DNA of 55,896 bases, from the NCBI GenBank assembly GCA_035605155.1, contig DATNHC010000009.1:1-55896 (forward strand). Direction: 5' to 3'. The notes beneath the pieces were generated by a model. That model was not told where the DNA came from. It did not search any database and was given only the letters and a program-made list of their open reading frames with translations. Positions 7,476-25,915 of the stretch are shown here, piece after piece. The stretch comes from Solirubrobacterales bacterium (GTDB lineage Bacteria > Actinomycetota > Thermoleophilia > Solirubrobacterales > 70-9). The translations under genes and the position numbers were made by a program. The first letter of the stretch is position 1; each line of letters begins with the position of its first letter.

Positions 7476-7543
7476 GTCATCGTAGACACCTCAGCTCCCT
7501 CCGATCGGCTGGTAGTCCCAACTGAAGCCAACCGAGCGGGCCG

Positions 7544-8023
7544 CTAAGGAGCAAGCTCCCGCTTCAACCCCTGGGCCAGCGCGTAGACACAGCCACGGTA
7601 GCGCTCGATCGCCAGCGGCCCTGCGAACGTCCCCTGGTAGACCAGGGCGGCGAGCTGGCCGGCGGGGAAGTTGGCGCTCGGCTGTCTTTCGTGGCGGGCG
7701 ATCCCGGCAACCGCCTGGCGCTGCTCGGCGCTCAGCTCGCTCTCAGAGATATAGCGGCGGGCTACCTCGAGCGGGGTCTTGCCGGCGCAGTCGGCTTGCC
7801 CGGCGGCGATCGCCCCCGCGGAGCCGGGAATCGCGGTGTTGGGCGCAGGCGCGGGGAAGTTGCGGTAAAGCTCGCGCAAGACAGGCGAGGCGCCCTTTGG
7901 CGGCTTTGGCCCGCGGATCGGCGGGAAGGGGTCCCTGGCGGTGCTCTGGGTGTCCTCCTGCTCCCCGCAACCGGCGATCGCGAGCGCCAAGAGGGCGCAG
8001 AGGGCTGCGCAGCGGCGCCTCAT
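7544..8023 (-). CDS. Hypothetical lipoprotein (last gene of the large secreted-protein operon)
   Basis: Lipobox LLALAIAGCGE. The ATG overlaps the upstream stop as ATGA (8020..8023). No recognisable domain. Confidence 0.7.
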   Translation of the reverse strand: MRRRCAALCALLALAIAGCGEQEDTQSTARDPFPPIRGPKPPKGASPVLRELYRNFPAPAPNTAIPGSAGAIAAGQADCAGKTPLEVARRYISESELSAEQRQAVAGIARHERQPSANFPAGQLAALVYQGTFAGPLAIERYRGCVYALAQGLKRELAP

Positions 8024-8811
8024 CGCTTCGGCGTGCAGCTCCTTTGCACGTTGCCTGAGAGCCGCGTGCCGTCGGCGAAGAGGAAATCGCCGTGGGCATA
8101 GAGGTGGCCGGTGGGACAGCTCGCCAAGAGCAAGCTGCGCTTTTGGCCTTTATAGGTCCAGGTTTTTTTGATCCTCGCCCTGAAGGAGATCAAAGAGCCC
8201 TGGCCGCCGACGATCGTCGGGATCTTGACTTTAGTCTGGGTGCCGTATTTGCCCGCTGTGCGCTCGATCACCGCGCTGGTCACGAAGACCGTCGGGGCGG
8301 GGACGTAGGCATAGACGTGCATGATCAAGACCGGCTTGCCCGCCTTGGGGGCGCCGTTGAAGATCAAGAGCCTGCCGCCGGCTTTGAAGGGCGCCTGTTC
8401 GGGCAGGGCGATCTCCGCTTCGGCGCGCCCTGTGCCGATGAGGGCATCCCCGCAGACCCTTTCGGCCTCTGAGGTGAGCCTGCTCTGCAGCTTGGCGACC
8501 GTGCATCTCGCAAGGCCCTCGGTGTAGAGGTGGCCGTGGCGGTCGAATTTCAAGTGCAGGGTCGAGAGCGCCGGCACGTGGGAGCCGTCGGCGGTGCCGA
8601 TCGAGCCCGCCACCCGCAGGGCGATCGGCGCCGGCGCCTTGGCGGGCAGCGCCGTGGGGCTGATCGAGCCGTCGATCTCGATGATCAGGTTGCCGCTCCT
8701 CACGGTCTGCCCGAGCGCCGTGGCGGCGAGCGCGCCCAAGGCGAAGAGCGCCGCCAGCGCCAGGCGCGCACGGCGCGAGCGTGCCGGGCTCACTTGCCCC
8801 GCACCTTGCAC
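8020..8811 (-). CDS. Secreted single-module protein (paralog family with 8790..9590 and 46133..46897)
   Basis: Signal peptide (RLALAALFALGALAATALG). Shares GNL[IV]...C-x(n)-C-x(3)-IG-x-G...LL-x-FNG...C-terminal ..SC..K[RG] with the two paralogs. The track start (GTG 8811) overlaps the upstream gene by 22 nt. An in-frame GTG at 8793 would give a GTGA overlap instead. Confidence 0.8.
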   Translation of the reverse strand: MQGAGQVSPARSRRARLALAALFALGALAATALGQTVRSGNLIIEIDGSISPTALPAKAPAPIALRVAGSIGTADGSHVPALSTLHLKFDRHGHLYTEGLARCTVAKLQSRLTSEAERVCGDALIGTGRAEAEIALPEQAPFKAGGRLLIFNGAPKAGKPVLIMHVYAYVPAPTVFVTSAVIERTAGKYGTQTKVKIPTIVGGQGSLISFRARIKKTWTYKGQKRSLLLASCPTGHLYAHGDFLFADGTRLSGNVQRSCTPKR

Positions 8812-9590
8812 TCGCGCACCAGCTTGGCCGAGACGCTGCGCCCGTCGTCGAACTCAAAGCTCGCCCGCGCCAGGGGGAAGGGGGCTGAGGTGAAGCCGGC
8901 CGGGGCGGGGCAATCGGCTGCGGCGAAGCTCTTGCGCTTACCGGCGTGGGTGTAGCGGCGGGCGAGGGCCAGGTCGAAGGCCGAGATGTAGCCGTAGGAG
9001 GAGGCGATCGGCGGCAGGGTGCCGATCAGCGTCGTGCCGAAGGTCCCGGCGCTCTTTCTGAGCTCAAAGACGATCACGTAGGTGAGCGGCAGGGGCGCCT
9101 GGGTGGCGACCTGGGCGAGGATCGCGGGGCGGCCCTTGTAGCGGCCGTTGAAGGCGAGCAGCGGGCCGTTTGAGGCAAAGGCCCCCTGGCCGGGCAGGCT
9201 GATCCGCGAGGTGACGTTGCCGTGGCCGATCTGGGCATCGCCGCAGACGCGGCGCGCTTCGCTGGAGGAGATCGATTCGAGCCTTTGCAGCGGGCAGACG
9301 GCGAGGCCCTGGCTTTGCAGGCGCCCGTGGCGGTTGATCTCGAGCACGATCCGCTCCAGTTTGGGCGGCGTCGTGCGGTCGGTGGTCTTGATCTTGCCGC
9401 CCATGCGCACCGCGACCGGCGCGGCCTGCGTGCGCGGCAGGCGCTGGGGGGCGATCTCGCCGTGAAAGGAGACCACCAGGTTGCCCTTCTTGGCCAGCTC
9501 GGCGGTTGCGGGGCTCTGCGCGGCAAAGAGCAGCGCCGCGGCCAGGGCAAGGCCGCCCAGCAGGGTTCTGATCGTGCGGGGCGCCGCCAT
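8790..9590 (-). CDS. Secreted single-module protein (paralog of 8020..8811)
   Basis: Signal peptide (LLGGLALAAALLFAAQSPATA). Collinear similarity to its neighbour (GNLVVSFHGEIAP..., RVCGDAQIGHGN, LLAFNG, ends VRECKVRGK). Confidence 0.8.
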   Translation of the reverse strand: MAAPRTIRTLLGGLALAAALLFAAQSPATAELAKKGNLVVSFHGEIAPQRLPRTQAAPVAVRMGGKIKTTDRTTPPKLERIVLEINRHGRLQSQGLAVCPLQRLESISSSEARRVCGDAQIGHGNVTSRISLPGQGAFASNGPLLAFNGRYKGRPAILAQVATQAPLPLTYVIVFELRKSAGTFGTTLIGTLPPIASSYGYISAFDLALARRYTHAGKRKSFAAADCPAPAGFTSAPFPLARASFEFDDGRSVSAKLVRECKVRGK

Positions 9591-9598
9591 CGGTGCCC

Positions 9599-10219
9599 CT
9601 AGCGCACCAAGGGGTAGGCGCAGACGTACTCGGCGGGCGAGCCGACCGATATCTCAGAGATCGCCCCGGTGCCGCTGATCACCACGGTCGAGTAGCCGCC
9701 CCCGGTGGTGTTGCCGTAGTAGGCGTCGGTGAACTGGCGATCCGTGCCGGTGCCGGTGCCGAGGTTGATCGAGGCGCGCACCGAGTAAAGCGCCATCGGC
9801 GTGGGCAGGTAGCCGCCGCGCGCCGCGCACCCATCGGCCGCGGCGGCCAGGTTGGGCGCCGGTGGGTTCGATGCCGAATCGAAGCAGACGCCGCGCAGGA
9901 GGGTCGTCCCGGCCGGGCAGGCGGCGGCGTGGCCTGAAACCGTGTTGGCATTGCCCGCCCGGGTTGCCGCGGTGGCCTCGGGCACGGTGCCCAGGGCGGC
10001 GAGGTTGATGTCGGCGCCGCTCAGCGAGCCGTTTGCGACCTTCGATCCGTTGACCGCGTTTTTGGCGATCTTGCCGGTGGTCACCGCCTTTGCCCGCAGC
10101 TGGCGGGTGCCGACCGAGTTCTTATCCAGGGCGGCGTAGGCAGAGCCCGTGAGCGAGGCGATCAGGGCGATCGTCGCGATCACTGTGGCCGGTGAGGGCC
10201 GGCTGATGCCAAGCTTCAT
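9599..10219 (-). CDS. N-terminally anchored/secreted hypothetical protein with a Cys-containing C-terminal domain
   Basis: GGAGGA Shine-Dalgarno 6 nt upstream of the ATG. N-terminus VIATIALIASLTGSAYAALDKNSVGTRQLRAKAVTTGKIAKNAVNGSKV (short amphipathic repeats). C-terminal part has 4 Cys (AACPAGTTLLRGVCFD...DGCAARGGYLPT...EYVCAY). Confidence 0.75.
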   Translation of the reverse strand: MKLGISRPSPATVIATIALIASLTGSAYAALDKNSVGTRQLRAKAVTTGKIAKNAVNGSKVANGSLSGADINLAALGTVPEATAATRAGNANTVSGHAAACPAGTTLLRGVCFDSASNPPAPNLAAAADGCAARGGYLPTPMALYSVRASINLGTGTGTDRQFTDAYYGNTTGGGYSTVVISGTGAISEISVGSPAEYVCAYPLVR

Positions 10220-10237
10220 CTTGTTCCTCCGAGTCTC

Positions 10238-12943
10238 TTAGCGGCGCGCGCGCCGGTTGTCAGTGCCCTGGCGTTTGCCGCAGGCGGCCTTGATCGCGAC
10301 CTTCTGGGTGCGGGCCTTGCCGTTTTGGCCTGTGAACTCGACCAGCGCCTGGGGCGCCTTGCCCGCGCAAAGGCTCTTGGTGTTGACCAGGTAGCCCTGC
10401 GCGCCGCCGAGCAGGTCGAGGCGGAAATGGCCGACCGGGGCGTCGGGGATCACCGGCACGGTGGTCTTCAGGTGGCCCCTTTTGACCGAGGCCGAGCGGG
10501 CCTCGGGCATGATCGTCACCTGGCCGCCGAGGATGAAGATCAGGCGGGGCAGGCGGCCGTAGCCTGAGACCGCGTAGGCGGGGCCCGCCAGGGGCTGATC
10601 GAGGAGGGGCGTATCGACCCGCGCGCCGCCGATCGGCTGGCGCCCCGCGCAGCGTTTGGCGGCGAGCTCGGCCTTGGAGCAGATGTTGCCGAGGTGGCCC
10701 TGGTCGATCGCGAAGTCCTTGGGCAGGGTGACCGAGAGCGAGCGGATGTTGGCGTCGGCGGGGCGGGTGTAGAGGTCTACTCGCAGGGCGGGGTTCTTGG
10801 AGCGCTTGGTCTGCTTCTTGCCACCCAGCTGGGTGATCGCCATCCTTGGCCGGAAGCCGAGCGTTGCGCAGTTGACGACGTTAAAGAGCGAGCTGAAGGC
10901 GGCCACCGTGCCCTGATCGCCGATCCCCTGGCTTTTCACCGCGAGCGCCTCACAGTTGGTCGGGTTGAGGGTGAAGCCCGGGCGGGTCAGGTTGACCTCG
11001 ATCGAGCGCAGGCGGATCGGCACGCCGCCGACGATCGCCGGAACGGTGTCAGAGAGCGCGGTGACCTGGGCGGTGGCCGGATCGACGTTGACGGCGACCC
11101 TAACGACGATCGTGCCGTAGTCATAGGGGCCGGCCAGGGCCGGGGTGACCGCGACCAGGGAGAGCGGCGCGCCCTTGAAGGGCCCGGCGAAATACATCTT
11201 GCCCTGGGCGTGGAAGGGGTGGCTGCCGGGACCGGCGGCGACGTTGGTAGTGCCGATCAGGCTCTGGGCGGGACAGCTCGGCGCGGCCTGCTCGGCGAGG
11301 CCCGGCTTTTGGGCGGCGGCGAGGATCGCCGCCTCAGGACAGTAGGCCAGGCCGCGCAGCGAGCCGGTGAAGCCCGGCGGCATGGTGAAGCCCAGGTCAC
11401 CGATGAACTGGTCGCCGTCGTCGCGATCGAGCTTCAGGTGAAAGTCAGAGAAGGCGCCGGCCAGCGGGTTTGAGGTGCCGGCCGCAAGGCGCGGTGAGAA
11501 GGGGCGGGTGGTGCCCGGGCAGGAGGCGCCGCCGGGACCGGAGGAAAGCTCGAAGAACTGCTCAGAGCGCTGGTCTGCCAAGACCACGTTCCAGGGGAAG
11601 AAGTGGGCGTCGACCCGGTAGACCGAGCAGTGGGTGGGGGTGGCGACGAGGCCGCGGTCAGAGGCGAAGAGGTGCAGGTCGAAGGTCTCAAAGGAGACCT
11701 GGGGCAGGTCCTCGATCAGGGCGGTGATGCGGCCTGTGGTGGGATCGGGGTGGAAGGTGCCAAGCAGCTTGGCGTTGATGCCAAAGCCCGAGGCGAGCAA
11801 GAAGAAGCGGTACTGGTTGCCGGGCTTTGGCTGGCCCAGGTAGATCGAGCCGGTCAGCGGCCCGTCGAGGGAGGGCGAGTCGACCTCGAAGGTGCCGATC
11901 TTGGCGTTGTCAGGGCAGTTGTGGGGGGCCTCTGAGTCAAAGCCGGCCTCTGCGTCTAGGCAGGCCCTCTGCCCGTCGGCGGCGTCGGGGTTGATCGTCA
12001 GCCCCTCGGGCAGGGTCAGGGTGGCGCTTTTGATCGGCGAGGGGGTGGTCGATCTGCCAAGCGGCTGGGGGGCTGCCATTTCGATGTCAAAGCCCGCCGG
12101 GGCGTCGGTCTCCTTGCTGGTCGGGGTCGCCAGGAGCACCGGTTTGAAGGTCATCGCCGAACAGCCCGTGGAGGCCGGGTAGGCGGCCTCGGCGTGGGTC
12201 GGGTTGCCGGGGTCCTGGTAGGTGGTGAGGTCGAGGGAGACCGCCAGGGGCGCCCCGGTGCAGATCGAGGGGTTGTTGATCAGCGGGTTGACCGAGATCC
12301 CCGCCGAGGTCGGTTTTGTCAGGCAATCGGCGCCGGCTTTGCCCGGGCAGCCGACCGTGCCTTTGGGGAAGCGCTCTGGGTCGTGGATCTCATCGGCCGG
12401 AAAGCCCCAGTAGGTGAGCTCGGCTTTTGCCAAGGGCGTCAGCTGGGTCAGGTTGGCGACGGTGAAGCGCAGGCCGTAGTCGGTGGTGGTGCGCACCGCG
12501 ACCGGGATCGAGATCGGGATTTCCAATCCCGGCACGATGAAGCCAAAGAGCGCCGTCTGGGCGCCGGGCGGTTCGCGGTTATAGATCGGCGCGGTGCCGA
12601 GCAGGGCGTTGGGGTTTCCTTCGTGGTTGGCGCGAATCGTGATCAGGCCGACCTGAGAGGTGGAGGGGCAGCGCTTGAAGGCGAAGTCCTCAGAGGTGCA
12701 TTTGGGCACCGCGTTGGGGTTGCCGAAGAGGCCCTCGGGGGTGTTGACGGCGACGTCCTTGGCGGCCTCCGGGGCACCCGGCGAGTCGAGCGTAAAGGAC
12801 ATCTTGACGTCGGGGTGCCCGCCGGCCTGGGTGGTGGAGGTGGTTACGGTGAAGTCGTTGATCGCTTGGGAGGCCTGGGCGGGAGTCGCCAAGGCGCAGG
12901 CGGCCAGGCAGGCCGTAAGGGTGAGCAGGGCACGTGACCTCAT
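10238..12943 (-). CDS. Secreted ~900-aa multi-module protein, 'B-type' (paralog of 17391..20204), function unknown
   Basis: Signal peptide (LLTLTACLAACALATPAQA). Collinear with the paralog (QAGGHPDVKMSF; TLPEGLTINPDAADGQRAC; IGTFEVDSPSL..GSIYLGQPKPGNQYRFFL). Four recurrences of an LP-x-G...C...C(P)...[IV]G unit. ATG overlaps the upstream stop (ATGA 12940..12943). Confidence 0.85.
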   Translation of the reverse strand: MRSRALLTLTACLAACALATPAQASQAINDFTVTTSTTQAGGHPDVKMSFTLDSPGAPEAAKDVAVNTPEGLFGNPNAVPKCTSEDFAFKRCPSTSQVGLITIRANHEGNPNALLGTAPIYNREPPGAQTALFGFIVPGLEIPISIPVAVRTTTDYGLRFTVANLTQLTPLAKAELTYWGFPADEIHDPERFPKGTVGCPGKAGADCLTKPTSAGISVNPLINNPSICTGAPLAVSLDLTTYQDPGNPTHAEAAYPASTGCSAMTFKPVLLATPTSKETDAPAGFDIEMAAPQPLGRSTTPSPIKSATLTLPEGLTINPDAADGQRACLDAEAGFDSEAPHNCPDNAKIGTFEVDSPSLDGPLTGSIYLGQPKPGNQYRFFLLASGFGINAKLLGTFHPDPTTGRITALIEDLPQVSFETFDLHLFASDRGLVATPTHCSVYRVDAHFFPWNVVLADQRSEQFFELSSGPGGASCPGTTRPFSPRLAAGTSNPLAGAFSDFHLKLDRDDGDQFIGDLGFTMPPGFTGSLRGLAYCPEAAILAAAQKPGLAEQAAPSCPAQSLIGTTNVAAGPGSHPFHAQGKMYFAGPFKGAPLSLVAVTPALAGPYDYGTIVVRVAVNVDPATAQVTALSDTVPAIVGGVPIRLRSIEVNLTRPGFTLNPTNCEALAVKSQGIGDQGTVAAFSSLFNVVNCATLGFRPRMAITQLGGKKQTKRSKNPALRVDLYTRPADANIRSLSVTLPKDFAIDQGHLGNICSKAELAAKRCAGRQPIGGARVDTPLLDQPLAGPAYAVSGYGRLPRLIFILGGQVTIMPEARSASVKRGHLKTTVPVIPDAPVGHFRLDLLGGAQGYLVNTKSLCAGKAPQALVEFTGQNGKARTQKVAIKAACGKRQGTDNRRARR

Positions 12944-15900
12944 CGCCTGCCGCCTCTCTGCGTGCCCCGCTGTTTCTGTTTATTGGGCTTGCGCGCCACG
13001 CAGCGCCTCTTGCCGGCGCGGCGCACCGCCCGCTTGCCTTTCGGGCAGCGCTTGGGCTTTGCCGTCGGCTTTGCCTGGTTGGGGCTCGAGCCCAGGGTGC
13101 CGATCGCCGCCGGCGGCGCGGCCTGGGTGCCGGGCCCGTGGCACTCGTCGGCCGCCGCGCAGGGGGGCGGTGGGGGGATGTGGAAGAAGCCGCCACCCTC
13201 GCGGGCGTCATAGAGCTTCATCAGGGTGCCGTTGCCATCCCCCTCAACCAGCGTCTCGCGGGTGAAGAAAAAGGCGTCGGTGCCGTCGGCTGTGACCGTG
13301 AGCAGGCCCGAGTCGAAGGGGTCCTGGCCGGTGGAGATCAGCTCGACCTTGCCCTCTTTCCACTCATAGGCGTCTTGCTTTGCGTTGGCATCGCGCAGGA
13401 CCAGGGGCTCGGCCGTGTTGAAGAAGACCCGCCCGTCATCGCTCAAGCCGAGGCCCGCCTTTGGCAGCGAGGCGTGGCCCTGGGGCTCGGCGCCGGTGGC
13501 GCTGCAGGAGGCGCAGGAGATCTGCCCGCCGGATGCCTCATAGCGGAAGACCTGGCGCATATCGGCCGTCTCGAAGCCGCTCCCAGTCAGATCGAGCGAG
13601 GAGGGGAAGGCGGCGTAGGCGCTTGTGGGGGTGACCTGGAAGTCTGCCGTGTGGCGAGTGTCGGGCTCGGCGACGGAGTCGATCACCAGCGGGTTGTCAT
13701 AGGCGGCATCAAGCGGCGCCTCTGGCGGGCCGAAGAGCGCCACCTGGCCGTCTGCCGTGTCTGAGATCGCCAGGCGCCCGGCGTTGGCGGCGAGGCCGAC
13801 CGAGTCGCTCAGCACCCCTGCGCCGAACGCGGGGCCGACCTGGGCGCCGCTCGGGTCGTACTCGATCACCTGGCCCTGGCGGTCGACGTATATGTGGTCG
13901 TCGGTGGGGTCGACGGCGAGGCCGTAGGAGGGGGCGCTCTCCAGCACTTTGACGAAGGCGCCGCTGGAGTCGTAGATACGGGTTTCGGTGCCGTTGGTGA
14001 CGTAGGTGGTGCCGGCGGAGTCCACGGCGACCGAGTAGGCGACGCCAGGCACGGTGAAGGAGGTGGGGGCGACGGGTTCGGCGGGTTCGGCGGTGTTATA
14101 GACCTGGATCGTCGAGTCGCCGCCGAAGATGCCGAAAAGCGGCGAGGCGGCGACGTAGAGGTGGCCGTTTGCCGGGTTGACGGCCACGCCAACGGGGTGG
14201 AGGCCGCCGAATTCGCCGATCGTGATTTTCGCCTCATAGGCGCCAGTGGAGGAGAAGCGCTTGACCGCGTTGTTGCCGAAGTCGGGCACGTAGAGGTCGC
14301 GATAGTTGGGCGAAGCGGGGTAGTTGTCGACCGCGACCTGGGTCGGCAGGCCGACGGGGAAGCCGAGGATGGAGCTGTCGCCGAACTCCAGGAAAACGGA
14401 ACCCGAGGAGGCGCCATCCTCTTTGCTCTCCGTGCCGAAGGAGCTCACCGCTTTGCCGTCTTTGTCGAACTTCTGCACGTAGGCGCCGGGACTGGATAGC
14501 GTGTTGGCGTTGTCGAGCACGTAGATCGAGCCGTCTGCGGCGTCGATCGCAACCCCCTCGGGTTTGCCGAAGCTGCCGAAGGAGAGCGTGTGGTTGTGGG
14601 TGAGCTGGCCCAGCGGCGTGGAGGCGCTCGACTCAAGGGTGGCGAGGAGCTGCGGCGCCTGGCCCGGGGCGGAGCGGAAGAGGTTGGGGGCGCCCTCTGT
14701 GCCCTGGCCGTCGAGTTTCTCCGGGCTGAGGAAGTGGACCGTGCCATCCGCTGCCACCCCACCGCCACCGCCCACGGCGACCACTGAGCAGTCCTGGGCC
14801 CCGCCCGGCAGCGCGTTCCAGTCCTCGATGTTGAAGCTGTTGGCGGCCGGGTCGCAGGCGTCGGTGTCGCCGGCGCCGCCCATGCCGAGCGAGACGCGGC
14901 GAAGCGTGGCCGTGCTCGTCTCGAAGCGGAAGAGGTCGGCTGAGGTGTCGGTGTCCTGATCTGCCGCGGTGGCGAGCGGGTCGGGGGTGGTGAAGTAGAG
15001 CTGGGAGCCGTCAGCGGACATACCGGCGTAGTGGGCGCCGATCGTGGTGGCGGGTGTCAGCTCAAGCGAGTTGGGCGAGCCTGCCTGGTGCAGGTAGAGG
15101 TGGTGCAGCGGGTTGCCGGCGGCGTCCTGGCCGACCTCGACGCCGATCACGACGCGAGATCCGTCCTCGGAGACGTCGAGCGCTACGACTTCCTGCCCGG
15201 CTTTGATCGTCGTGCCGTCGGGCAGGGTGGAGGCGACCTCGGTCGTGTTGGCGATGAGGTCGCGCGAGTAGATCGTCAGGTTGCCGTCCTCGGGGTTGCC
15301 GGCCGGCTCGAACTGCTGCTCTGAGGCAAAGAGCAGGTGAGAGCCGTCGGCGGAGAGCTGCTCTTTGACCGCGCCGGGGACGTTCTCGGGCATCGGCACG
15401 GGTATCGAGCCCGCCATGCCCTGGACCAGCTCTCCCTCCGGGGTGCGCAGCGGGATGCCGGTCGAGCCGTCGGCAAAGCAGGGGTTGCAGATCTCAGGCC
15501 CGGCGAAGGCGAATGAGGAGAGCGAGGCATCGGCGCCGCCCAGGGTCGAGGAGAAGGGCGGTGAGACGCTGGGGCCCTCGGGAGCGTCGGCGGGGATGCC
15601 GACGTAGGTGGTCTCCCAGCGCTGGTTCTCAGCATCGCGCACGGCCAGGTAGGGGTCGGGGCCGCGGTTGGTCGGGTTGCCCGTGCCCGGGATGCCGCCG
15701 TCTTTGACCGAGTAGAGCGCTCTGCCGGGGGCCTCGGGGTAGCCGCCGAAGGGCAGCTCGCCGGGGACCAGGTCAGAGGTGACGTTATAGCCGCCCTGGT
15801 CTGAGGCAGAGACGAGCTCATAGGCGCGGCAGTCGAGCAGGAAGCCGGCGCCGGTCTGCTGGCGGGCGAGGTTGTTTTCACAGGAGGGATCGAATTTCTG

Positions 15901-17391: not shown

Positions 17392-20204
17392 CAGCGTGCC
17401 CTCTTCTTCTTGCAGGCGGCCTGCAGCGGGACCTTGAGGTTGCGCTTGGCCCCGTTTTGCCCTTTGAAGCGCACGGTTGCCTTTGGCACCTTGCTCTTGC
17501 AGAGGTCGCGCGAGTTCTGCAGGAGGCCCTTGGCGCCGCCCTGCATCTGCAAGACGATCTGTGAGACCGGCACGTCGGGGATGAAGTCAAAGGTGTTGCG
17601 GATGCCGCCTTTGATCGAGTCGACGCGGCCGACCGCGGTGAAGTCGACCTGGCCGTGCAGGTCCATCACCAGGTCGGGCAGCTCGTTGCTGGAGGATCGT
17701 AGGTAGACCGGGCCCTGCAGCGGTTGATCGAGGATCGGCGTGGTAGCGGTGACCTTGCCGTAGATCGAGCCGGCCGGGCAGCTCTTGGCGGCGAACTGCA
17801 CCCTGGTGCAGATCGTCTTGATGTGGGCCTGGTCGAGGAACTCCGACCTTGGCAGGGCGACCGAGGCGAAGGAAAGGTTGGCGTCGCCTGGCCTGGCTTT
17901 GAGGACGGCGCGCAGGACTGGGTGATCGCCGCGCTTGGTGCCGCCCCTAAGGCGCAGGCTGAGCTTTGGCTCAAAGGGCAGGTTGGCGCAGTTGGCGAGC
18001 TGGAAGTGGGAGGTGCGGGTGGCTTTGGCGCCTTCTTCGCCGAAGAGCTCTGCATCGGAGGAGAGCGCTTTGCAGTTGGTCGGGTTGAGGGCGAACTTCG
18101 GCCGGTCGATGTCAACGCGCACCGAGCGCACCCGCAGCGGGATGCCGTCGATCTGAAGCGGCAGTGGGTCAGAGACCGTCTTCACCCGGGCGGTTACCGG
18201 ATCGACGTGGACGGCGACGCGGGTGGCGATGTTGCCGACGTCATAGGGGCCGGTGACCGCGGGGATCACGACCACGATCGAGAGCGGCGCCCCTTTATAG
18301 GGACCGGCGAGGTAGGCCTTGCCCGATTGGTAGAGGACACGGCTGCCGGCACCGGCGCCGCCGGTCACGCTGCCGATCTGGCTTGCCTGTGGGCAAACCG
18401 ATGAACTCAGCTCTGCGAGGCCCGAGTAGAGCGGGTTGCCGAGCTGGGCGATCGCCGCCTCTGGGCAGTAGGGGATGCCCTTGAGGATCCCCGAGAAGCC
18501 AGCCGGGGGAGAGACGTTGGCGGCGGCAAGGAACTGATCGCCGTCAGCTCGGGAGATCTCGACGATGAAGGGCGAGTGGGCGCCGCCGGTGTTCTTGGTC
18601 ACCCCTGCTTGGAAGGAGGGCGCGAAGGGCCGTTGCGCTCCGGGGCAGGGCGTGCCGTTAGGACCTGAGTCGATCGTGAAGAACTGGGTCGAGCTCTGCG
18701 TGGGCAGCTCTGAGGCCCAGGGGGTGAAGCTGGCTTTGATCGGGTAGGTGCCACAGCGGGTCGGGGTGGCAAGGGCGCCGCGCTCAGAGCCAAAGACGTG
18801 CATGTCGAATTCCTGGAAGGTGAACTGGGGCAGGTTCTCGAAGCTGACCGTCATCCCGTTGAGGGGATCGGGGCGAGCGGTGCCGGGCAGCTTGACGTGC
18901 AGGCTGAAGCCGTCGAAGACCAAGAAGACCCGGTAGCGGTTGCCGGGCAGCGGCTCGCCCAGGTACATCGAGCCTCGCAGCACTTCTGGAAGCGAGGATG
19001 AGGTGACCGCGAGGGAGCCGATCTTGGCGTGCTCGGGGCACTGGGCTTCCTCGCGCGTCCCGAAGCGAGCTTGTGCTGCGGTGCAGGCCACCTTGCCGTC
19101 GGCGGCGTTGGGGTTGATCGTGAAGCCCGGCGGCAGCTGCACGGTGGTCGCCTTGATCGCCGAGGGGGTGGGAACGGTGCCGCTCAGCGTCTGGGGCACC
19201 GTCAGGGTGGCATCGAGGCCCGAGGGCGAGTCTGCCTCGGTGGTCGTCGGCTTGGCCACCAGGCTCGGGTTGAAGGTCAGCTTGTCGCAGCCGGTCGTTG
19301 CCGGAAAGCTGGAACTGGCGAAATCCGTCTCACCGTCATAGGCGAGGGTTTCGACCGAGGAGTTGAGCTCCCCCGCGCAGTTGGTCGGGTTGGAGATGAA
19401 GGGGGTGAGGGGGGCGTTGGAGGGAGTCGGAGCCGGGACCATTTTCTCCAGGATGTTGGCGCAGTCGGGATAGGGGAACCTGCCCGCCAGGAGGGCCGGC
19501 AGCGCATCCTGGTCGCGGCAGAGGTACAACGGCCACCCGTCCCCTTCGGATTCACCCTCGAACCCCTCCGGGGGCATGCGCAGCGCATCGTGGGAGGGAT
19601 CGGCCGGCACTCCCCAGAAGATGAACTCGACTCGCCTGGGCGCGACCGGGAAGGCGCCGACGCGCCGCGGGATGCCGAGGGTCTTCGTCTCGAGGCCGTA
19701 GTCGCTCTCGGTGCGGGCGGTGAACGAAATGAAGACGGGCAGTGAGAGCGTGTTGGAGGGCACCGGGGCCGGGAAGGCGAGCAGCGCCGCCTGGCCCCCC
19801 TTCGGCACCATGTTGAAGAGCGGCATCACGGTGCAGCCGGGGCCTGGCTCGGCCCCGCGAATGGACAGGCAGACGAGCCCCACCTGGCTCTCGATTGGGC
19901 AATCGAGCAAGGAGAACTGCGCCAGGGTGCAGCGGGGGATGTCGCGCGGAGCGCCGAGCAGGCCGGGGGCGCTGTTGACCGTGATCTCTTTCGCTCCATC
20001 GCAGTCCCCGCAGGGCGACAGATCCTCGCCGAACAGGAAGGAGAAGTGCAGGTCGGGGTGGCCACCGGCCGCCTGGGTGTTGACGGAGGTCGCCCCGAAG
20101 GAGAGAATCGGCGTCTTCGCCTCTGCTCGCTCGCCGAGCTCTCCGCCGGACAAACCCAAAGCGAGGGCGAAGGCTGAAATGCCGAGTAGCAGGCGCGCCC
20201 TCAT
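17391..20204 (-). CDS. Secreted ~940-aa multi-module protein, 'B-type' (paralog of 10238..12943)
   Basis: I place the start at the internal ATG 20204 (MRARLLLGISAFALALGLSGG, a signal peptide), which forms an ATGA overlap with the upstream stop. The 70-aa N-terminal extension in the track overlaps the upstream gene and is Arg/Pro-rich. The stop overlaps the next ATG by 1 nt (17391). Confidence 0.85.
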   Translation of the reverse strand: MRARLLLGISAFALALGLSGGELGERAEAKTPILSFGATSVNTQAAGGHPDLHFSFLFGEDLSPCGDCDGAKEITVNSAPGLLGAPRDIPRCTLAQFSLLDCPIESQVGLVCLSIRGAEPGPGCTVMPLFNMVPKGGQAALLAFPAPVPSNTLSLPVFISFTARTESDYGLETKTLGIPRRVGAFPVAPRRVEFIFWGVPADPSHDALRMPPEGFEGESEGDGWPLYLCRDQDALPALLAGRFPYPDCANILEKMVPAPTPSNAPLTPFISNPTNCAGELNSSVETLAYDGETDFASSSFPATTGCDKLTFNPSLVAKPTTTEADSPSGLDATLTVPQTLSGTVPTPSAIKATTVQLPPGFTINPNAADGKVACTAAQARFGTREEAQCPEHAKIGSLAVTSSSLPEVLRGSMYLGEPLPGNRYRVFLVFDGFSLHVKLPGTARPDPLNGMTVSFENLPQFTFQEFDMHVFGSERGALATPTRCGTYPIKASFTPWASELPTQSSTQFFTIDSGPNGTPCPGAQRPFAPSFQAGVTKNTGGAHSPFIVEISRADGDQFLAAANVSPPAGFSGILKGIPYCPEAAIAQLGNPLYSGLAELSSSVCPQASQIGSVTGGAGAGSRVLYQSGKAYLAGPYKGAPLSIVVVIPAVTGPYDVGNIATRVAVHVDPVTARVKTVSDPLPLQIDGIPLRVRSVRVDIDRPKFALNPTNCKALSSDAELFGEEGAKATRTSHFQLANCANLPFEPKLSLRLRGGTKRGDHPVLRAVLKARPGDANLSFASVALPRSEFLDQAHIKTICTRVQFAAKSCPAGSIYGKVTATTPILDQPLQGPVYLRSSSNELPDLVMDLHGQVDFTAVGRVDSIKGGIRNTFDFIPDVPVSQIVLQMQGGAKGLLQNSRDLCKSKVPKATVRFKGQNGAKRNLKVPLQAACKKKRAR

Positions 20205-23200
20205 CGCCCTGCCCTCCTCCCGGAGCGGTCGCGCCCACGCTTCGCGCGCACGCAGCGCTTGCCCTTCTTCTCGGCCGCCTTGCGCGCACGCTTCGTGCAG
20301 CGCCCCCGCCGTGGTTGGCGTTTGCGGGGCTCTGCAAGGTTCCCGCCACGGCCGAGGGGCGCGCTGCTGGCCAGTCGCGGCGGGGCCGGCGCCGCTCCTC
20401 CCACCCCATGGCACTCATCGGCCGCCGCGCAGGGGGCCGGCACGGCCGCGCGCGGGAAGCCGCCGTTTACGCGTGCGTCATAGAACTTGAGGTTGGGACC
20501 GTTCTCGTCCTCGGGGACGAGGGTCTCGAAGGTGGCGAAGTAGACGTCGGTGCCGTTGCCGCTGATCCCGATCAGGCCCTCGGGCGACTCGCTGTCGGGG
20601 GCCGCGTCGCCGCTGCCGGGGGTGATCAGCTGCGGGCGGCCGTTGACGTACTCATAGACGTCGATCGCCTCGTTGGTGTCGGCGGGGACGACTCCGTCAG
20701 CAGTGAAAAAGAAGGTGCGCCCGTCGTCGGCGATATAGAGACCGTTGCGAGCCCCCATCGCATCGGCGCTCGGCGGCTCGCCGCTGGGGCGGCAGGAGGC
20801 GCAGATCAGCTCTTCAGCCTCGGCGTCGAACAGGTACATCGCCTCGAAGCCGCCGTTGTCGGCGCCGGTCAGCCGATCGTCTGAGAGGAAGGCCGCGTGA
20901 TCGCCAGAGGGCGTCACCTGCAGGCGGCTGGCGGGTTTGTCTTCTGAGAGCGCGGCGACGAACTGCACCGTCCCTTCCCGTGCCACATAGAGATTGCGGG
21001 CGCCGGGGATTCCCTCACCGGGAACGAGCTGCTCGGGGGAGTAGAAGTAGGCGGCGCCGCTCCCGGTCCCGAAGGGGTGGTCGGTCTCACGCCAGTCGGA
21101 TTTGCTCCCGGCCGTCTGGGGGACGACGATCCCGCACTTCGCCACCCACTCGGCGTTGCAGCCGTCGCGGTCGCCGGCGCTGCCGAGCTCTCCCTTGGAG
21201 AGGCGCGTGATCTGATCGCCCGCCTCGCTCCAGCGGTAGAGGTCGGTCGAGGTGTCGGTGTCATCGGCGGTGATCTGCTCATCGGAGGTGAAGAGGACCT
21301 GCGAGCCGTCGTCGGTCATGCCGACGAAGTCGACGACGTGGCCGGCCGATACGTCGTAGCTGACCGCGCCGTCGACGCGCATGTAGAGGTGGCCGGGGTA
21401 GAGGCCGAACTTGCAGTGCTTGGTCTGGAGCGTCAGACCGCAGTAGAAGGGGTGCTCGCCGCAGAGGGGCCGACCGCAAACCCCTGTCGCCAGCGAGGAC
21501 ATCAACAGGTGGCTGCCGTCTTCGGAGACCGCCGGCAGCTCCAGCCAGCCGTCGGTCAGAGGGCCCGGCTCGCGCGGTATGTCGCCGCCCGCCGGCGTCT
21601 TCGAGGCGATCGTCACCGCGCCCGTCCGCAGGTCGTTGTCATAGGCTGACCCCGTGCCCGACGTCAACCCTCCCGGTGCGAAGGCCAGGTTGGCCGAGGA
21701 GAAGAAGAAGTGGCTGAAGTCGCCTGCCGGGCGGAAGTCCCCGGCGAAGCCGCCGATCGAGATATCCTCCATCGCGCCGGGCACCTCGGCGGCGTTGGTC
21801 GGCAGCCTGCCGAGGCTGTTGCCCTCAGCGTCGAAGAGGTAGCCCGCCGCGGAGCCGAGCCTGGGCGCCGCCCACTGCACGAAGCGCGAGAGCCGCTCGT
21901 CGAACATCGTGCCCGTGGCCGCGGCGCCCCCACTGTCAGACCGGTAGGGCGGCCCCCAGGTGAAGATCGCCGTGGTGTCCGTCGTCGGCCCCAGGCCCAC
22001 GTAACGCGTGCGCCAGCCAGTGTCTCCGCGCGTCGCCACGTAGAGGTCCCCGTAGGTGCCGAAGGGGTCGCCGCTGCCCTGCAGCGAGCCTATGAAAACG
22101 GAGAAGGGGAAACGCGAGGGGCTGGTCGCCTTGGGCGGTACCGCACCGCCCGGTATCAGGACCGTCGAGCCAGCATTCCCCGGCGAGACCAGCTCATAGG
22201 CGCGGCAATCGGGCAGGGCGCCGGAGCCCGACTGCTGGCGCGCGGTGGCGTTGGGGCAGGGCTCGGGGTAGAAGTTGAAGGTCTGGTTGGCGCTCGTCGT
22301 GGTGCCGGCTTCGTTGGTGGCGACGACGCGGAAGTGGTGGACGACCGGGTCGAGGCCCTCGATGTGGGCCTCGACCGCGACCGCTCCGTGGGAGTCGCCG
22401 ATCGCCACCTCGGGCGTGCTTTGCCCGTAGGCGCGGGTCGTGCCGTACTCGAAGTGGTAGGAGGTCGCGGTGCCGAGCGGGTTGATCTGAGCCCTGAGGT
22501 CGGCCGAGCTGGCGGTCACGTTGACGGCGCTCTGCGAGTCGATCGTCGGCGGCGCGGCGAGCGTGGTGAAGCTCTGCACCGGACCGGTCGTGTTGGAGGT
22601 GTATGGCTTTACGATCCGTAGCCGCACTTCGTACTCGGTCTTCGGCGCCAGGCCGGCAACGGAGAGGTTGAAGGCAATGGGCGAGTCACCGGTGCCGATC
22701 GGCGCCGGGCGCCCGAAGGGCGCCCACTGCGACTCCGATGCCTTCTTGTATTCGGCCTGGTAGGTGGTGGCAGGGGGACTGGGATAGGGGGCAGCATCCG
22801 GGCCGTTGGGGTCGATCGTTCCCGTGAGCGTCGCCGCGCTGCGAGTTACGTCGCCGACCGGGTCGAGGGTCAGCTCCGGCGCCGGCCCCAGCTCGCCGAA
22901 GACGCTGACGCGGATTTCGGTGCGGTTTGATGGATCTTGGAGGGTGTATGGCTCGGCTTTGATCGGGTTGAGACTGAAGCCGACGATGTCGTCGGAGGAG
23001 TCGGGAGCCGGAACGTCGGTGCAGGGCAGGCTGGTCTCGAGGAGCGTCCCGCTCGGGTCGAACTCCTGGATACGGACCTCCCTGGGGGATGGAATGCCGT
23101 CCGGGCAATCGGAGAACCCGGCCGGATACCGCTTCGCCACGAAGACGTGGTCGTTGGCCGCGACCGCGACGTCGAAGGGGGCATCGGCGAATCCGCTGCC

Positions 23201-25573
23201 TTGCGGCCCGCCGTCGGCGGCCGTCGCCACCGTCGCCGTATTGGCGCCAGCGCCAGAGCCGCCGCTGAGCGCCGGGCTGCCCTGCATCGCCTCGATCTCT
23301 TCGACGTCGGTCCCGGCGACGGGGCCGCTGTCGAACTCGATCGTGTAGGTGCCGCCGCCCGGTGCTCCGGGGCCGCCGGTGACGCTCACCGAGCCCCCGC
23401 CGGCGCCGATCGAGGGCAGCGCGTTCAACGCCTCTTCCACCGAGCCGGGCCCGCTCGGCGGCGCGTTGTGGGGGATGTTGGGGGTTTCGTAGGGGAGGTT
23501 CGAGATGAGTACGTAGTCGTCACCTGACGCCGTGGCCGGCGCGGAGATGGTCAGCGTGCCTGGGGTGACGGCGGTAATGAAGACATCTGCGTTAGGCAGC
23601 ACGGCGTTGCAATTCGGGACGGGTGGGCACGCCGTGGTGATCCTCTCGCCCACGGTGAAGGCGCCTGTCGTGGTTTCGACGTTGGTGATCACGTCGGAGC
23701 CTTGGGTGAAGTCGCCGAGGCCCGTAGTGCCGCCTGTTTCGGCCCCAAAGCTCAAGCGGAACTGGCCGGCGCCGGCGTTGACGGTCAGCTCTTGAATGTC
23801 GTTGGAGGCGATCGTCGAGGGTGAGAGCACAGGCGGGCCAACCTGCGGAGTGAACTTCTGCAGCCTGCCGGAATCGACGACGTAGATTGCGCCGTTGGAG
23901 TCCTCCGCAACCGCACTGCTCCTGAATTGGAACTGAAACTGAAACTGGCCCGTGGCGCCGCCTTGAACGCCCGCCTTGCACACGTCTCCCGAAGCGGGTG
24001 TACAGACCTCGAACTCATCGGCGGCGCTGTCGCCGGGGCCGGTGGCGACAACGTCCCAACCGAAGGCTCGCACGAGGGTGCCGGCCGCAGTGAACTCCTG
24101 GATCCGGTAGTTGGAGTTGTCGGCAACGAGAACGTTGCCCGCATTGGGGGCTCCTGCCGGAGCGACCGCGATGCTGCGTGCGGCCGAAAGGTAACCGGCC
24201 GCGTCGCCGTCCACCGCTGCCTTGCAGGCGTCGTTGGCGGTGCAGACCTCATAGCCCCCGCCGGATGCGAGGGTTGTAACCGCGGCCGTCTGGCTCCCGC
24301 CGGCCAGGTTCGTCGCGTCGGCTCTTAGCTCGACGACGTCGTCGCCGCCGAGGGCGCCTTTGTAGGTGATGACGTAAGGGTTAGAGCCCCCAGGGCCGCC
24401 GGTGACGGTGACGCTGCCCCCGTTGCCGCTGATCCCTGGCTGTGTTTCCAGTGCGGCTTTGACCTGCGCCGAGGTTGCGTCGTAGGGGATGGGTGCGGTG
24501 AATTCTGCGGGATTCGGGTTGCCAAAGTTTGTGAGGCAGGCGCCCGAGCAGAGGGTGAAGGTTCCGCCGGTGGCACTTACAGTGAGCTCTTGCACCTCGT
24601 CGACGTCGCTGTCGCCGGCCCCGGAGCGGACTACGTCGCCGCCGAAGGCGCGCAGGAACTGGCCGCTGGCCGAGAAGACGTTGATGCGTTTGCCGCCGCC
24701 GCCGCTGAGGCCGAGGTCGATGACGAAGAGGTTGCCGTTTGCCTGGTCGATCGCGATGTCGATGGGCTCGTCTACTGCCCCACCGATCTGAGTCGCATCA
24801 TCGACGCGGCTCTGCGGCGTTCCGTTCTTGCAGACGTCGCCGAGGTCGGTACGGCAGATCTCGGCGCCGGTTGCGCCGGGATTGACGGTCGTCACCCAAC
24901 CCTCGGCGGGACCGCCGCTGAGCGCGGAGTCATCGATAGCGATCCGCGGCTGGTCGGTGCCTCCCATCGTGCCGCCGAAGGCGATCAAATATGGGCTGGA
25001 GCCGCTGGCATCGCCGGGGCCGCCCGTGACGGTGACGGCGCCGTCGGTGATCGATCCGAGGGCATCGAGGGCAGCCTGCACCGCTGCTGCTGAGGCGTTA
25101 TAGGCGAGCGCCGGAGTGGTGTCGGCGCCAAAGCCGAGGGTGAAGGTGCCGCCGGTGGCCTGAATCATGAGCTGTTGGAGCTCGTCCGAGTTACCTGGGC
25201 CTTCCTTTACCACGTCGGTGCCCCAGAGGCGCTTGAAGGCCTGTGTGAGGGAGAACTGCTGGATGCGGTTGCCAAGGTCGTCGTATGCGCCGCGAAAATC
25301 ACCCAGGTACATGTCACCGGCAACGGCACCCCCAGCCCCGGTGCCATTGACGGCGATTGAGAGAGGGGTCACGAAGTCGCCGGGCTCTTCCTGAGGGCAG
25401 CGATTACTACCAACACACTCGTTTTCTAGTCTCGTCCCGAACTGATACGCACCGATGACTCCCCGTTCGGCACTCGCCGCAGGGGCGAGGAGAAGCAGCG
25501 CGGTGAGCCAGGCGCTCAGCGCGAGCCAAAGGCGAAGGCCTGGCTGGTGGCTGTGGTTTTGGGTGTCGATCAT
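20201..25573 (-). CDS. Giant secreted NHL-repeat / novel-repeat / FN3-like / TolB-like protein, 'A-type' (paralogous architecture to 12940..17391)
   Basis: Signal peptide (LWLALSAWLTALLLLAPAASA). NHL blades (NRIQQF, KRINVFSASGQFLRAFGGDVV, YRIQEFTAAGTLVRAFGWDVV). Three 'QELTVxATGGTFTL...VTVTGGPG' repeats. Two FN3-like repeats. CRAYELVS + PD40-like repeats. Tail: APCAAADECHG...RCTKRARKAAEKKGKRCVRAKRGRDRSGRRAGR. Confidence 0.9.
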   Translation of the reverse strand: MIDTQNHSHQPGLRLWLALSAWLTALLLLAPAASAERGVIGAYQFGTRLENECVGSNRCPQEEPGDFVTPLSIAVNGTGAGGAVAGDMYLGDFRGAYDDLGNRIQQFSLTQAFKRLWGTDVVKEGPGNSDELQQLMIQATGGTFTLGFGADTTPALAYNASAAAVQAALDALGSITDGAVTVTGGPGDASGSSPYLIAFGGTMGGTDQPRIAIDDSALSGGPAEGWVTTVNPGATGAEICRTDLGDVCKNGTPQSRVDDATQIGGAVDEPIDIAIDQANGNLFVIDLGLSGGGGKRINVFSASGQFLRAFGGDVVRSGAGDSDVDEVQELTVSATGGTFTLCSGACLTNFGNPNPAEFTAPIPYDATSAQVKAALETQPGISGNGGSVTVTGGPGGSNPYVITYKGALGGDDVVELRADATNLAGGSQTAAVTTLASGGGYEVCTANDACKAAVDGDAAGYLSAARSIAVAPAGAPNAGNVLVADNSNYRIQEFTAAGTLVRAFGWDVVATGPGDSAADEFEVCTPASGDVCKAGVQGGATGQFQFQFQFRSSAVAEDSNGAIYVVDSGRLQKFTPQVGPPVLSPSTIASNDIQELTVNAGAGQFRLSFGAETGGTTGLGDFTQGSDVITNVETTTGAFTVGERITTACPPVPNCNAVLPNADVFITAVTPGTLTISAPATASGDDYVLISNLPYETPNIPHNAPPSGPGSVEEALNALPSIGAGGGSVSVTGGPGAPGGGTYTIEFDSGPVAGTDVEEIEAMQGSPALSGGSGAGANTATVATAADGGPQGSGFADAPFDVAVAANDHVFVAKRYPAGFSDCPDGIPSPREVRIQEFDPSGTLLETSLPCTDVPAPDSSDDIVGFSLNPIKAEPYTLQDPSNRTEIRVSVFGELGPAPELTLDPVGDVTRSAATLTGTIDPNGPDAAPYPSPPATTYQAEYKKASESQWAPFGRPAPIGTGDSPIAFNLSVAGLAPKTEYEVRLRIVKPYTSNTTGPVQSFTTLAAPPTIDSQSAVNVTASSADLRAQINPLGTATSYHFEYGTTRAYGQSTPEVAIGDSHGAVAVEAHIEGLDPVVHHFRVVATNEAGTTTSANQTFNFYPEPCPNATARQQSGSGALPDCRAYELVSPGNAGSTVLIPGGAVPPKATSPSRFPFSVFIGSLQGSGDPFGTYGDLYVATRGDTGWRTRYVGLGPTTDTTAIFTWGPPYRSDSGGAAATGTMFDERLSRFVQWAAPRLGSAAGYLFDAEGNSLGRLPTNAAEVPGAMEDISIGGFAGDFRPAGDFSHFFFSSANLAFAPGGLTSGTGSAYDNDLRTGAVTIASKTPAGGDIPREPGPLTDGWLELPAVSEDGSHLLMSSLATGVCGRPLCGEHPFYCGLTLQTKHCKFGLYPGHLYMRVDGAVSYDVSAGHVVDFVGMTDDGSQVLFTSDEQITADDTDTSTDLYRWSEAGDQITRLSKGELGSAGDRDGCNAEWVAKCGIVVPQTAGSKSDWRETDHPFGTGSGAAYFYSPEQLVPGEGIPGARNLYVAREGTVQFVAALSEDKPASRLQVTPSGDHAAFLSDDRLTGADNGGFEAMYLFDAEAEELICASCRPSGEPPSADAMGARNGLYIADDGRTFFFTADGVVPADTNEAIDVYEYVNGRPQLITPGSGDAAPDSESPEGLIGISGNGTDVYFATFETLVPEDENGPNLKFYDARVNGGFPRAAVPAPCAAADECHGVGGAAPAPPRLASSAPLGRGGNLAEPRKRQPRRGRCTKRARKAAEKKGKRCVRAKRGRDRSGRRAGR

Positions 25574-25631
25574 CGTGGGGCCCCGGCCCGAGCGTTAGCT
25601 GTGGTGGACGCCCGGGCCGCTGGATCTGTCG

Positions 25632-25793
25632 TCAGCAATCGATCTCGCTACTCCGACTAGGGTCCGGGGGTGAATCCGAGGCGGTTGCCTTGCCTCCGGA
25701 GTTGTTGGCGGGGTAGGCGCCACCCAACGCCGCGAAGGCGACAACCGAGATCACTCCCGGGATGCCGAACCGGTTGCGTAGTGGCGAGAGCAT
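25632..25793 (-). CDS. Candidate 53-aa leader ORF (single TM) at the head of the big operon
   Basis: Below the track's length cut-off. ATG 25793 is preceded by AAGGAGAAG (spacing is a little long, ~11 nt). Product: MLSPLRNRFGIPGVISVVAFAALGGAYPANNSGGKATASDSPPDPSRSSEIDC. The N-terminus resembles the anchor of the 9599..10219 protein. Unverified. Confidence 0.3.
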   Translation of the reverse strand: MLSPLRNRFGIPGVISVVAFAALGGAYPANNSGGKATASDSPPDPSRSSEIDC

Positions 25794-25915
25794 CGAAATC
25801 TCTTCTCCTTGTCCCGTGAGCCCCTCTGCCCGCCGCTTCCCTTTGCGGCTTCCTCGAGGCTCGGTTGTCCCTGTTTGCTACGTCCCTGTGCCGTCTTTCA
25901 CAGACGACGTTCAAA

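Follow-up and report, generated by a model that had tools for sequence, protein, structure and literature searches.

The SusC/SusD systems of the Bacteroidota are characterized by many diverged, paralogous pairs of adjacent cognate envelope proteins in each genome. The Solirubrobacterales, like other members of the Thermoleophilia, are Actinomycetota common in soil; they have been poorly sampled by culture, and hardly anything is known of their cell surface. Here we describe a gene cassette from a Solirubrobacterales bacterium (assembly GCA_035605155.1, contig DATNHC010000009.1) that resembles SusC/SusD in genomic logic only, with many copies of a strictly adjacent cognate pair. The whole 55,896-nucleotide (nt) stretch that was analysed, hereafter the window, has eight tightly packed, back-to-back minus-strand genes at 7544-25573, as judged from its open reading frames (ORFs) and their translations. 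The first four to be transcribed, A2, B2, A1 and B1, make up the cassette. A proteins are large propeller proteins, B proteins are arrays of beta-sandwich modules, both are exported by the Sec route, and all eight products have signal-like N-termini.

The cassette was followed through 82 related loci. A scan of species-representative genomes, which confirmed at least 546 relatives, provided the best 80 of them, from 31 Solirubrobacterales metagenome-assembled genomes (MAGs). Gene order was read from tblastn maps; gene calling based on GC content at third codon positions missed genes in lower-GC loci. The order A2-type, B2-type, A1-type, B1-type occurs in essentially all of the best 80 loci, in loci L001 and L002, and in all three loci picked from the A side. 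Every A-tail motif with enough downstream sequence (139 of 139) is followed on the same strand by a B homolog. The sequence-only reading of the window had proposed A and B as functional partners and had made conservation of their adjacency in relatives its own test; adjacency is kept throughout this sample and in the three A-side loci, and the overlaps between the genes are conserved as well. At 116 A/B junctions the genes overlap by 4 nt (52 cases), 8 nt (25) or 1 nt (8) or are separated by 0-25 nt (24); the remainder have gaps above 25 nt (4), longer overlaps (2) or no usable start codon (1).

Phylogeny follows position within the cassette. Neighbour-joining analysis splits 162 B proteins deeply into two clades, one with all 74 of 74 position-4 proteins and B1 of the window, the other with all 70 of 70 position-2 proteins and B2. 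In a tree of the A-core C-terminus, 61 of 61 A genes that precede a B2-type gene form one clade, which includes A2 of the window, and 75 of 75 that precede a B1-type gene fall outside it. Read from these trees, A2-B2-A1-B1 is an ancient duplication, fixed as a four-gene unit of two non-interchangeable cognate pairs. The earlier view of the locus as a tandemly duplicated two-gene module thus gives way to an ancient four-gene unit with strict pairing of A and B types, and a recent tandem duplication is ruled out by the position-specific clades. The window itself has the features that define the cassette: its gene order and junctions, an A tail with C-x5-CHG and a polybasic stretch, and a B head with GGHPD.

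Single genomes carry several cassettes. At least eight B1-type cassettes, roughly 116 kb, occur in one MAG (MFD09368.bin.2.101), and 4-6 occur in several others, among them a complete 3.09-Mb chromosome with at least four. Three complete cassettes of the eight-copy MAG (L044, L036 and L034) are consecutive and lie head to tail over ~66 kb of CAWCHE010000001.1 (639780-705837); five more lie elsewhere in that MAG. Within one MAG, identity is 58-75% between B1-type and 47-63% between B2-type proteins, and the copies are old paralogs. The cassette is duplicated and evolves as one unit: distances of the four genes between 49 cassettes are correlated (r = 0.58-0.73), which is what joint duplication and divergence of entire cassettes would produce. 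No cultured carrier occurs among the best 80 loci, which are all MAGs, and cluster look-ups returned metagenomic or MAG proteins.

Several motifs mark the family as a whole. The A tail contains C-[KAEQ]-A-[SA]-D-E-C-H-G, whose C, D, E, C, H and G residues do not vary among 32 aligned A proteins; the C..DxCHG pattern occurs 146 times in the 82 loci and the window. B proteins have a nearly universal head motif, [AG]G[GA]HPD. The last 20 residues of A and B homologs have a median net charge of +8, with +4 or more in 94-97%, versus a median of 0 and +4 or more in 10% of background ORFs from the same loci. In-frame A-B fusions account for three of the 150 best B representatives (P0490, P0383 and P0376); they run from a signal peptide through an A core (CPNEA...DCRAYELV), C-x4/5-C, a polybasic stretch and FN3 to a B body that begins AGGHPYE and is devoid of the B signal peptide. 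These Rosetta-stone fusions give the best hint so far of joint physical action by A and B, and they show that the basic stretch is usable as an internal linker.

Each A protein is a variable NHL-type head on a conserved PD40/TolB-like propeller core. The common architecture proposed for A1 and A2 holds, with FN3, a core that starts at CRAYELVS and a PCAAADECHG tail region in both. A2 consists of a signal peptide, an NHL-type head, two FN3 domains, the core (amino acids (aa) ~1100-1713, CRAYELVS at 1123-1130), PCAAADECHG (aa 1714-1723, positions 20405-20434) and a disordered tail (20204-20404) with a net charge of +21. A ~100-aa domain interrupts its head three times (aa 125-215, 318-425 and 585-745; 23339-25201, minus strand) and follows the pattern E[VLI]QxL.V.A.GG.F.L.F ... 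Y[ND]A[ST]..V..AL ... V.V.GGPG. This domain has no Pfam match and matches tail-sheath and major-tail families of PHROGs (phrog_2839, 4e-9; phrog_10909, 9e-7); it is probably an undescribed decoration-type domain that A2 shares with phage tails. A1 has a signal peptide, an NHL propeller head (aa ~25-395), FN3, a core that starts at CRAYELVS (aa 521-528) and contains a second, inserted NHL-like region (aa ~932-1250), PCAAADECHG (13135-13164) and a tail (12943-13134) with a net charge of +20. Against a Pfam cut-off of 20, NHL (PF01436) scores 83.7 bits in A1 and a marginal 22.3 bits in A2; both therefore qualify as NHL-repeat proteins at the domain level only, and only through the variable head. 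Other Pfam and NCBIfam matches of A1 and A2, to FN3-like and six-bladed-propeller enzyme families, are sub-threshold. A1 matches the NHL domains of TRIM71 and Thin (~1e-19), and the A-family profile matches the NHL propeller of the extracellular PknD sensor domain (1rwi_B, E = 2.4e-14). In a model of the A2 core (predicted local distance difference test score, pLDDT, 80; predicted template modelling score, pTM, 0.78), FN3 is followed by a large propeller that resembles TolB, DPP-IV/POP propellers, sortilin and GH74, with disorder from PCAAADECHG onward. A bodies are very acidic (isoelectric point 4.25, net charge about -110), and A and B bodies each contain 18-26 cysteines.

B is made of four tandem homologous beta-sandwich modules of ~200-240 aa. 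B1 and B2 are 42% identical end to end, in keeping with their earlier description as collinear paralogs. Both have a signal peptide, the GGHPD motif (12809-12823 in B1, 20052-20066 in B2), the four modules and a basic C-terminal tail; B bodies are near neutral and their tails have a charge of +5. When the B alignment is cut into four, hhalign relates M2 to M4 (95.8%), M2 to M3 (89.5%) and M1 to M3 (83.7%), with alignments over nearly the full length of the modules. An AlphaFold2 model of B1 built with 33 homologs (pLDDT 84, pTM 0.74) is an all-beta chain of beta-sandwiches. Foldseek relates it to generic multi-immunoglobulin (Ig) and macroglobulin-domain arrays alone (template modelling (TM) scores of 0.1-0.16), including integrin alpha legs, alpha-2-macroglobulin, mastigoneme, adhesin repeats and a DUF11 protein. 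B1 and B2 have no Pfam, NCBIfam or PDB match. B1 has more than 1,300 scored relatives, every one of them "hypothetical" and derived from MAGs and metagenomes of Solirubrobacterales or Actinomycetota; one automatic "CusF" label is the sole exception among the names retrieved for B relatives. An exhaustive profile search gives 8,910 clusters at 50% identity, 3,489 of them below 1e-30. Giant relatives of 3,400-7,200 aa contain 8-18 matched B stretches, and four Actinomycetota giants (P0362, 7161 aa; P0369, 6729 aa; P0368, 4362 aa; P0364, 4032 aa) have 9-18. Since the giants are built largely of B-type modules, the module is also a repeat unit outside the four-gene cassette, and it constitutes a new domain family. 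The absence of a described family, as claimed beforehand, is sustained: searches of B, S (the S1/S2 family) and anch against Pfam, NCBIfam, PADLOC, PHROGs and PDB sequences assigned none, and a full-text literature search returned no description of the A/B family or the cassette.

Features of the operon are listed in Table 1. Its description as a tightly coupled operon of secreted proteins is borne out by the junctions and by the N-termini throughout. The A2/B2 junction is an ATGA overlap with GGGAGGAGGG just ahead of it, B2 and A1 share 1 nt in TGATG, and A1/B1 and S2/lipoprotein are again ATGA overlaps. GGAGGA lies within the 18-nt gap between B1 and anch, 8 nt separate anch from S1, and S1 and S2 overlap by 22 nt provided that GTG at 8811 is the start. 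No operon product has an enzyme, transporter or regulator domain assignable with Pfam or NCBIfam. A leader ORF, which had been counted as a ninth cistron, stops 58 nt short of the A2 start and is therefore uncoupled. Over 31 aa its N-terminus shares 52% identity with that of an anch-type protein in L082, and the ORF may be what is left of a truncated anch-family gene or may encode a small membrane peptide. With this ORF doubtful, eight cistrons are secure, not nine. The upstream promoter candidate is the sole minus-strand sigma-70-like site in 7000-26500, as had been claimed, but a match at 9 of 12 positions is not near-consensus, is weak evidence for a promoter and does not speak for function; both strands of this interval have 2 such sites versus 0.7 ± 0.9 in shuffles. 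The expected tRNA-Arg flanks the 3' end. Between it and the lipoprotein stop codon lies a terminator candidate, a hairpin devoid of a T-run (-48.4 kcal/mol over a 109-nt stretch, z = -2.87). An Rfam scan of the whole window at gathering thresholds gave tRNA-Arg alone, with no riboswitch or leader RNA.

Table 1. Features of the A/B operon and its borders in the window (positions in nt).
Feature	Position	Strand	Description
Promoter candidate	25916-25944	-	sigma-70-like, TTGACT-17-TACAGT; consensus match only, 9/12 positions
Leader ORF	25632-25793	-	53 aa; AAGGAG ribosome-binding site; signal-anchor-like N-terminus
A2	20201-25573	-	1790 aa
B2	17391-20204	-	937 aa, ATG start; longer GTG ORF reaches 20414
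A1	12940-17391	-	1483 aa
B1	10238-12943	-	901 aa
B1 module M1	12140-12871	-	
B1 module M2	11498-12139	-	
B1 module M3	10850-11497	-	
B1 module M4	10274-10849	-	
anch	9599-10219	-	206 aa
S1	8790-9590	-	266 aa
S2	8020-8811	-	263 aa, GTG start
lipoprotein	7544-8023	-	159 aa; lipobox IAGC
GC-rich hairpin	7440-7489	-	10-bp core 7449-7475; between lipoprotein stop codon and tRNA-Arg
tRNA-Arg(CCT)	7364-7437	+	convergent, beyond operon 3' end; Rfam

The last four genes had been treated as part of the same system. They are judged to be co-transcribed in the window, given gaps of 18 and 8 nt, but anch-S1-S2-(c5)-lipoprotein follows B1 in only ~13 of 80 loci (c5 is a 175-aa secreted protein), so that the tail genes are a facultative accessory set outside the conserved core. 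Elsewhere, B1 is followed by one S-like gene, by S-MMPL-c5, by TetR arrays or by nothing recognisable, and the lipoprotein is present in 8 of the 82 loci. The anch protein has an N-terminal signal/anchor helix and tail-fibre-like repeats (aa 27-79; phrog_892, E = 2e-5); its C-terminal domain contains Cys and gives weak matches of the C-type-lectin kind. S1 and S2 are basic (isoelectric point ~10) and 35% identical, S1 is secreted, and their family has 594 scored matches. S1 has no Pfam or PDB match, and S2, anch and the lipoprotein have no Pfam or NCBIfam match. The proposal that S1 and S2 are single-module versions of B is discarded as unsupported: hhalign comparison with whole B and with each module gives probabilities of 0.1-2.5%, and too little weight attaches to a BLAST match between B1 (497-640) and S2 (81-203) with E = 0.003 against nine proteins. 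Elsewhere S genes adjoin MMPL genes, TetR arrays and c5, which suggests that S may be functionally tied to MMPL-type export rather than to A/B. A third S paralog in the window (46133-46897, minus strand), 39% identical to S2, lies directly downstream of a TetR-family gene (47047-47976, minus strand). In five loci (L011, L015, L017, L020 and L045) a block of S, an MMPL transporter and c5 lies downstream of B1 and is followed on the opposite strand by genes for undecaprenyl-diphosphate synthase and a DUF2600 protein; the block may reflect orthologous genomic context rather than a functional link.

We interpret the cassettes, with a probability of roughly 0.45, as encoding envelope-associated heteromeric A:B binding complexes with diversified heads. 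Overlapping stop and start codons would lead to co-translation of each A with its B, and the two proteins would bind one another. B would serve as an extended stalk or scaffold of Ig-like domains and the strongly acidic A propellers as the distal, ligand-binding head, while the basic tails may attach the A:B complex to the anionic wall or membrane of the Gram-positive cell or, alternatively, to an acidic partner. Diverged cassettes with different heads could then provide a repertoire of specificities for substrates, surfaces or other cells, with anch, S1, S2 and the lipoprotein as an optional co-transcribed set of envelope accessories.

Several points weigh against this interpretation. That A binds B is something we infer, and the correlated distances would also follow from simple co-inheritance. 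Surface location is deduced from signal peptides, cysteine content and basic tails. Sortase anchoring is not indicated: no LPXTG motif lies near any C-terminus, no operon product has a C-terminal transmembrane helix, and the A and B tails are long, polybasic and not hydrophobic (maximum 15-aa hydropathy of 0.36-1.05 in the last 80 aa). Wall-binding domains (SLH, CWB2, LysM and GW) gave no match at E <= 0.1 in the eight proteins with Pfam and NCBIfam. Fold matches are generic (TM-scores of 0.1-0.3), so "stalk" and "head" are analogies. NHL/SGL propellers include enzymes and there are weak lactonase- and lyase-type matches, which makes a catalytic role possible; the invariant C-x5-CHG motif is left unaccounted for; and all homologs come from MAGs and metagenomes.

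A bolder version of the binding-complex reading, which we consider doubtful, is that the cassette encodes an undescribed Gram-positive envelope organelle, a four-component propeller-on-stalk receptor of two cognate A:B pairs, held to the wall by polybasic tails and present in a repertoire of at least eight diverged versions that differ in their heads.

Unlikely, although consistent with much of the same evidence, is an envelope coat or S-layer-like lattice in which A and B would form a regular layer or sheath and the cassettes would be coat variants and not ligand receptors, for example for escape from phages or predators. Large, acidic, cysteine-rich secreted proteins with cationic tails that could bind wall polymers would suit a coat, as would the conserved stoichiometric coupling, several diverged paralogs per genome and decoration-type domains common with phage tail proteins. 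S-layers, however, normally consist of one or two abundant proteins and not of four fixed components, SLH, CWB2 or other S-layer anchoring domains were not found, no invertible promoter or switching repeats occur near 25.6-26.1 kb, and heads that vary while the core is conserved are more suggestive of specificity modules.

Extracellular catalytic complexes are likewise improbable. Here the A propellers would be six- to eight-bladed lactonase-, lyase-, phytase- or peptidase-like enzymes, B a carbohydrate- or polymer-binding scaffold, and each cassette a degradative unit for one substrate, like a polysaccharide utilization locus. Consistent with catalysis, the A1 head has weak, sub-threshold matches to SGL, phytase-like, arylesterase and Vgb-lyase families, one homolog is labelled "sugar lactone lactonase YvrE" by the Joint Genome Institute (JGI), the A core fold-matches DPP-IV/POP and GH74 propellers, and ABC sugar-transporter or MMPL genes adjoin some cassettes. 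Yet all enzyme-family matches are below curated cut-offs, no catalytic partner such as an S9 hydrolase domain or a GH signature was found, the fold matches are generic for propellers, and the adjoining transporters vary by locus and are often on the opposite strand.

It is still less probable that the four proteins have no common function, as independent secreted proteins that are co-transcribed and kept together by co-duplication only. Correlated divergence of the four genes would be expected from co-inheritance alone, but strict gene order and type pairing over at least 136 pairs, persisting since a duplication that has left B1 and B2 ~42% identical, argue otherwise, as do the conserved overlapping junctions and the natural A-B fusions. 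A metal or redox role for C-x5-CHG, as a non-canonical haem-c or Cys/His metal site in metal or electron handling, is very improbable: its invariance and 146 occurrences and a CusF-like JGI label on one giant B-module protein speak for it, but the motif occurs once per 1,500-1,800-aa protein in a predicted disordered region, is C-x5-CH and not the CXXCH of c-type cytochromes (absent from all operon products), and is reduced in fused relatives to C-x4/5-C with loss of His and Gly, which a small disulfide loop fits better.

In the window, which is ordinary chromosomal DNA, the 5' half of tRNA-Arg(CCT) and an upstream GGCCTCTACGAT box are duplicated 862 bp upstream (6486-6541 versus 7346-7403, 98%), and the copies flank a single ORF (6713-7189, plus strand) for a 158-aa protein with hydrophobic stretches; the arrangement resembles a scar or remnant left by integration of a small element at the tRNA. 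A plus-strand 92-nt tRNA-Val(GAC) reported by ARAGORN (29757-29848) is doubtful because the Rfam scan did not report it. A 693-aa NHL and FN3 protein (3519-5600, minus strand) is A-head-like, lacks the A core and is followed by no B gene; the surrounding 4-6 kb has a GC content of 0.62 versus ~0.68-0.70 in the rest of the window. A 1322-aa DnaB helicase (50677-54645, minus strand) is split by an intein with LAGLIDADG endonuclease domains; an IstB/DnaC-like ATPase gene lies directly downstream (49949-50677), and ssb lies farther away (43895-44371).

A phage or other mobile origin of the operon is rejected: B has no relatives in 2.9 million viral contigs, the GC content of the operon is the same as that of its flanks, and its neighbours are housekeeping genes (dnaB, ssb, purA, a PBP gene and otsA). 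The duplicated tRNA-Arg half, which the tRNA itself separates from the operon, was also counted against mobility. Phage-type matches are limited to decoration-type domains, at aa 27-79 of anch and aa 122-211 of A2, and PADLOC found nothing meaningful among defence systems. A target of a diversity-generating retroelement is rejected as well, because no repeats resembling template and variable repeats occur and the only near-repeats are paralog blocks of 60-85% identity; no reverse-transcriptase domain was found among the ORFs scanned, a subset of those in the window. Phase variation was discarded, as no inverted repeats surround the promoter candidate.

A unit of ~14-15 kb in several old copies is a large unannotated investment in genomes of down to ~3 Mb, and the B module family, with its 8,910 clusters, has no Pfam entry. 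Pairing, C-x5-CHG, polybasic tails, GGHPD and fusions together offer a handle with which thousands of "hypothetical" proteins could be annotated. The binding-repertoire reading, if true, would account for some of the ecology of a lineage that dominates in soil; if it is wrong, the system still calls for an explanation and is strongly conserved. The envelope-organelle version, if true, would place the cassette beside the many SusC/D-type capture systems of Bacteroidota as their functional counterpart in a monoderm, and binding of substrates, particles or partners by these abundant soil bacteria would depend largely on it.

Described systems resemble parts of the cassette. The best PDB fold matches of B1 are integrin alpha chains (probability 0.97-0.99), and the A core matches large propellers that include the 10-bladed propeller of sortilin/VPS10 (TMq 0.31). 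The likeness, a propeller with a string of beta-sandwiches, is a structural analogy only. A and B have no sequence homology to integrins or sortilin, have TM-scores of 0.1-0.3 and lack FG-GAP repeats and a transmembrane segment; save for rare fusions, the A head and B stalk are separate chains, and they are bacterial, with two pairs per unit. TolB/PD40 proteins are approached by the A core, which is a PD40-type propeller by fold (4r40_C, E = 1e-8) with a weak PD40 Pfam match. The TolB propeller match is by fold only, and TolB_N, Pal and TolQRA were not found in the window; A thus differs from TolB in lacking its N-terminal domain and its Pal/Tol partners, its host is Gram-positive without an outer membrane, and its propeller is much larger and is combined with FN3, NHL heads and a polybasic tail. 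PknD of Mycobacterium tuberculosis is, like A, an extracytoplasmic NHL propeller protein of Actinomycetota with an unknown ligand, but A has neither a kinase nor a transmembrane segment, and its NHL head is its variable part. Teneurins and Tc toxins also combine NHL with FN3-like domains, and A has a weak TEN_NHL match and a teneurin-like structure (9ifo_A) among its core fold matches; A1 and A2 have no RHS or YD repeat match, and A has no YD/RHS shell or toxin domain.

Ig-repeat and DUF11 proteins and giant adhesins, such as region II of the ice-binding adhesin MpIBP, are likewise tandem beta-sandwich arrays, and the fold matches of B1 include adhesin repeat regions (6xi3, 4p99) and a DUF11 protein. 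B differs in that its module stands outside the Pfam and NCBIfam repeat families, in having exactly four modules in most members, in always being paired with an A gene and in lacking RTX/type 1 secretion or LPXTG signals. From SusC/SusD the cassette differs in its unrelated folds and its envelope type, and in lacking a TonB-dependent transporter, glycoside hydrolases and hybrid sensors. Neither the four-gene unit nor the domain family formed by the B module appears to have been described, and together they appear to be a new gene system built from ordinary extracellular folds.

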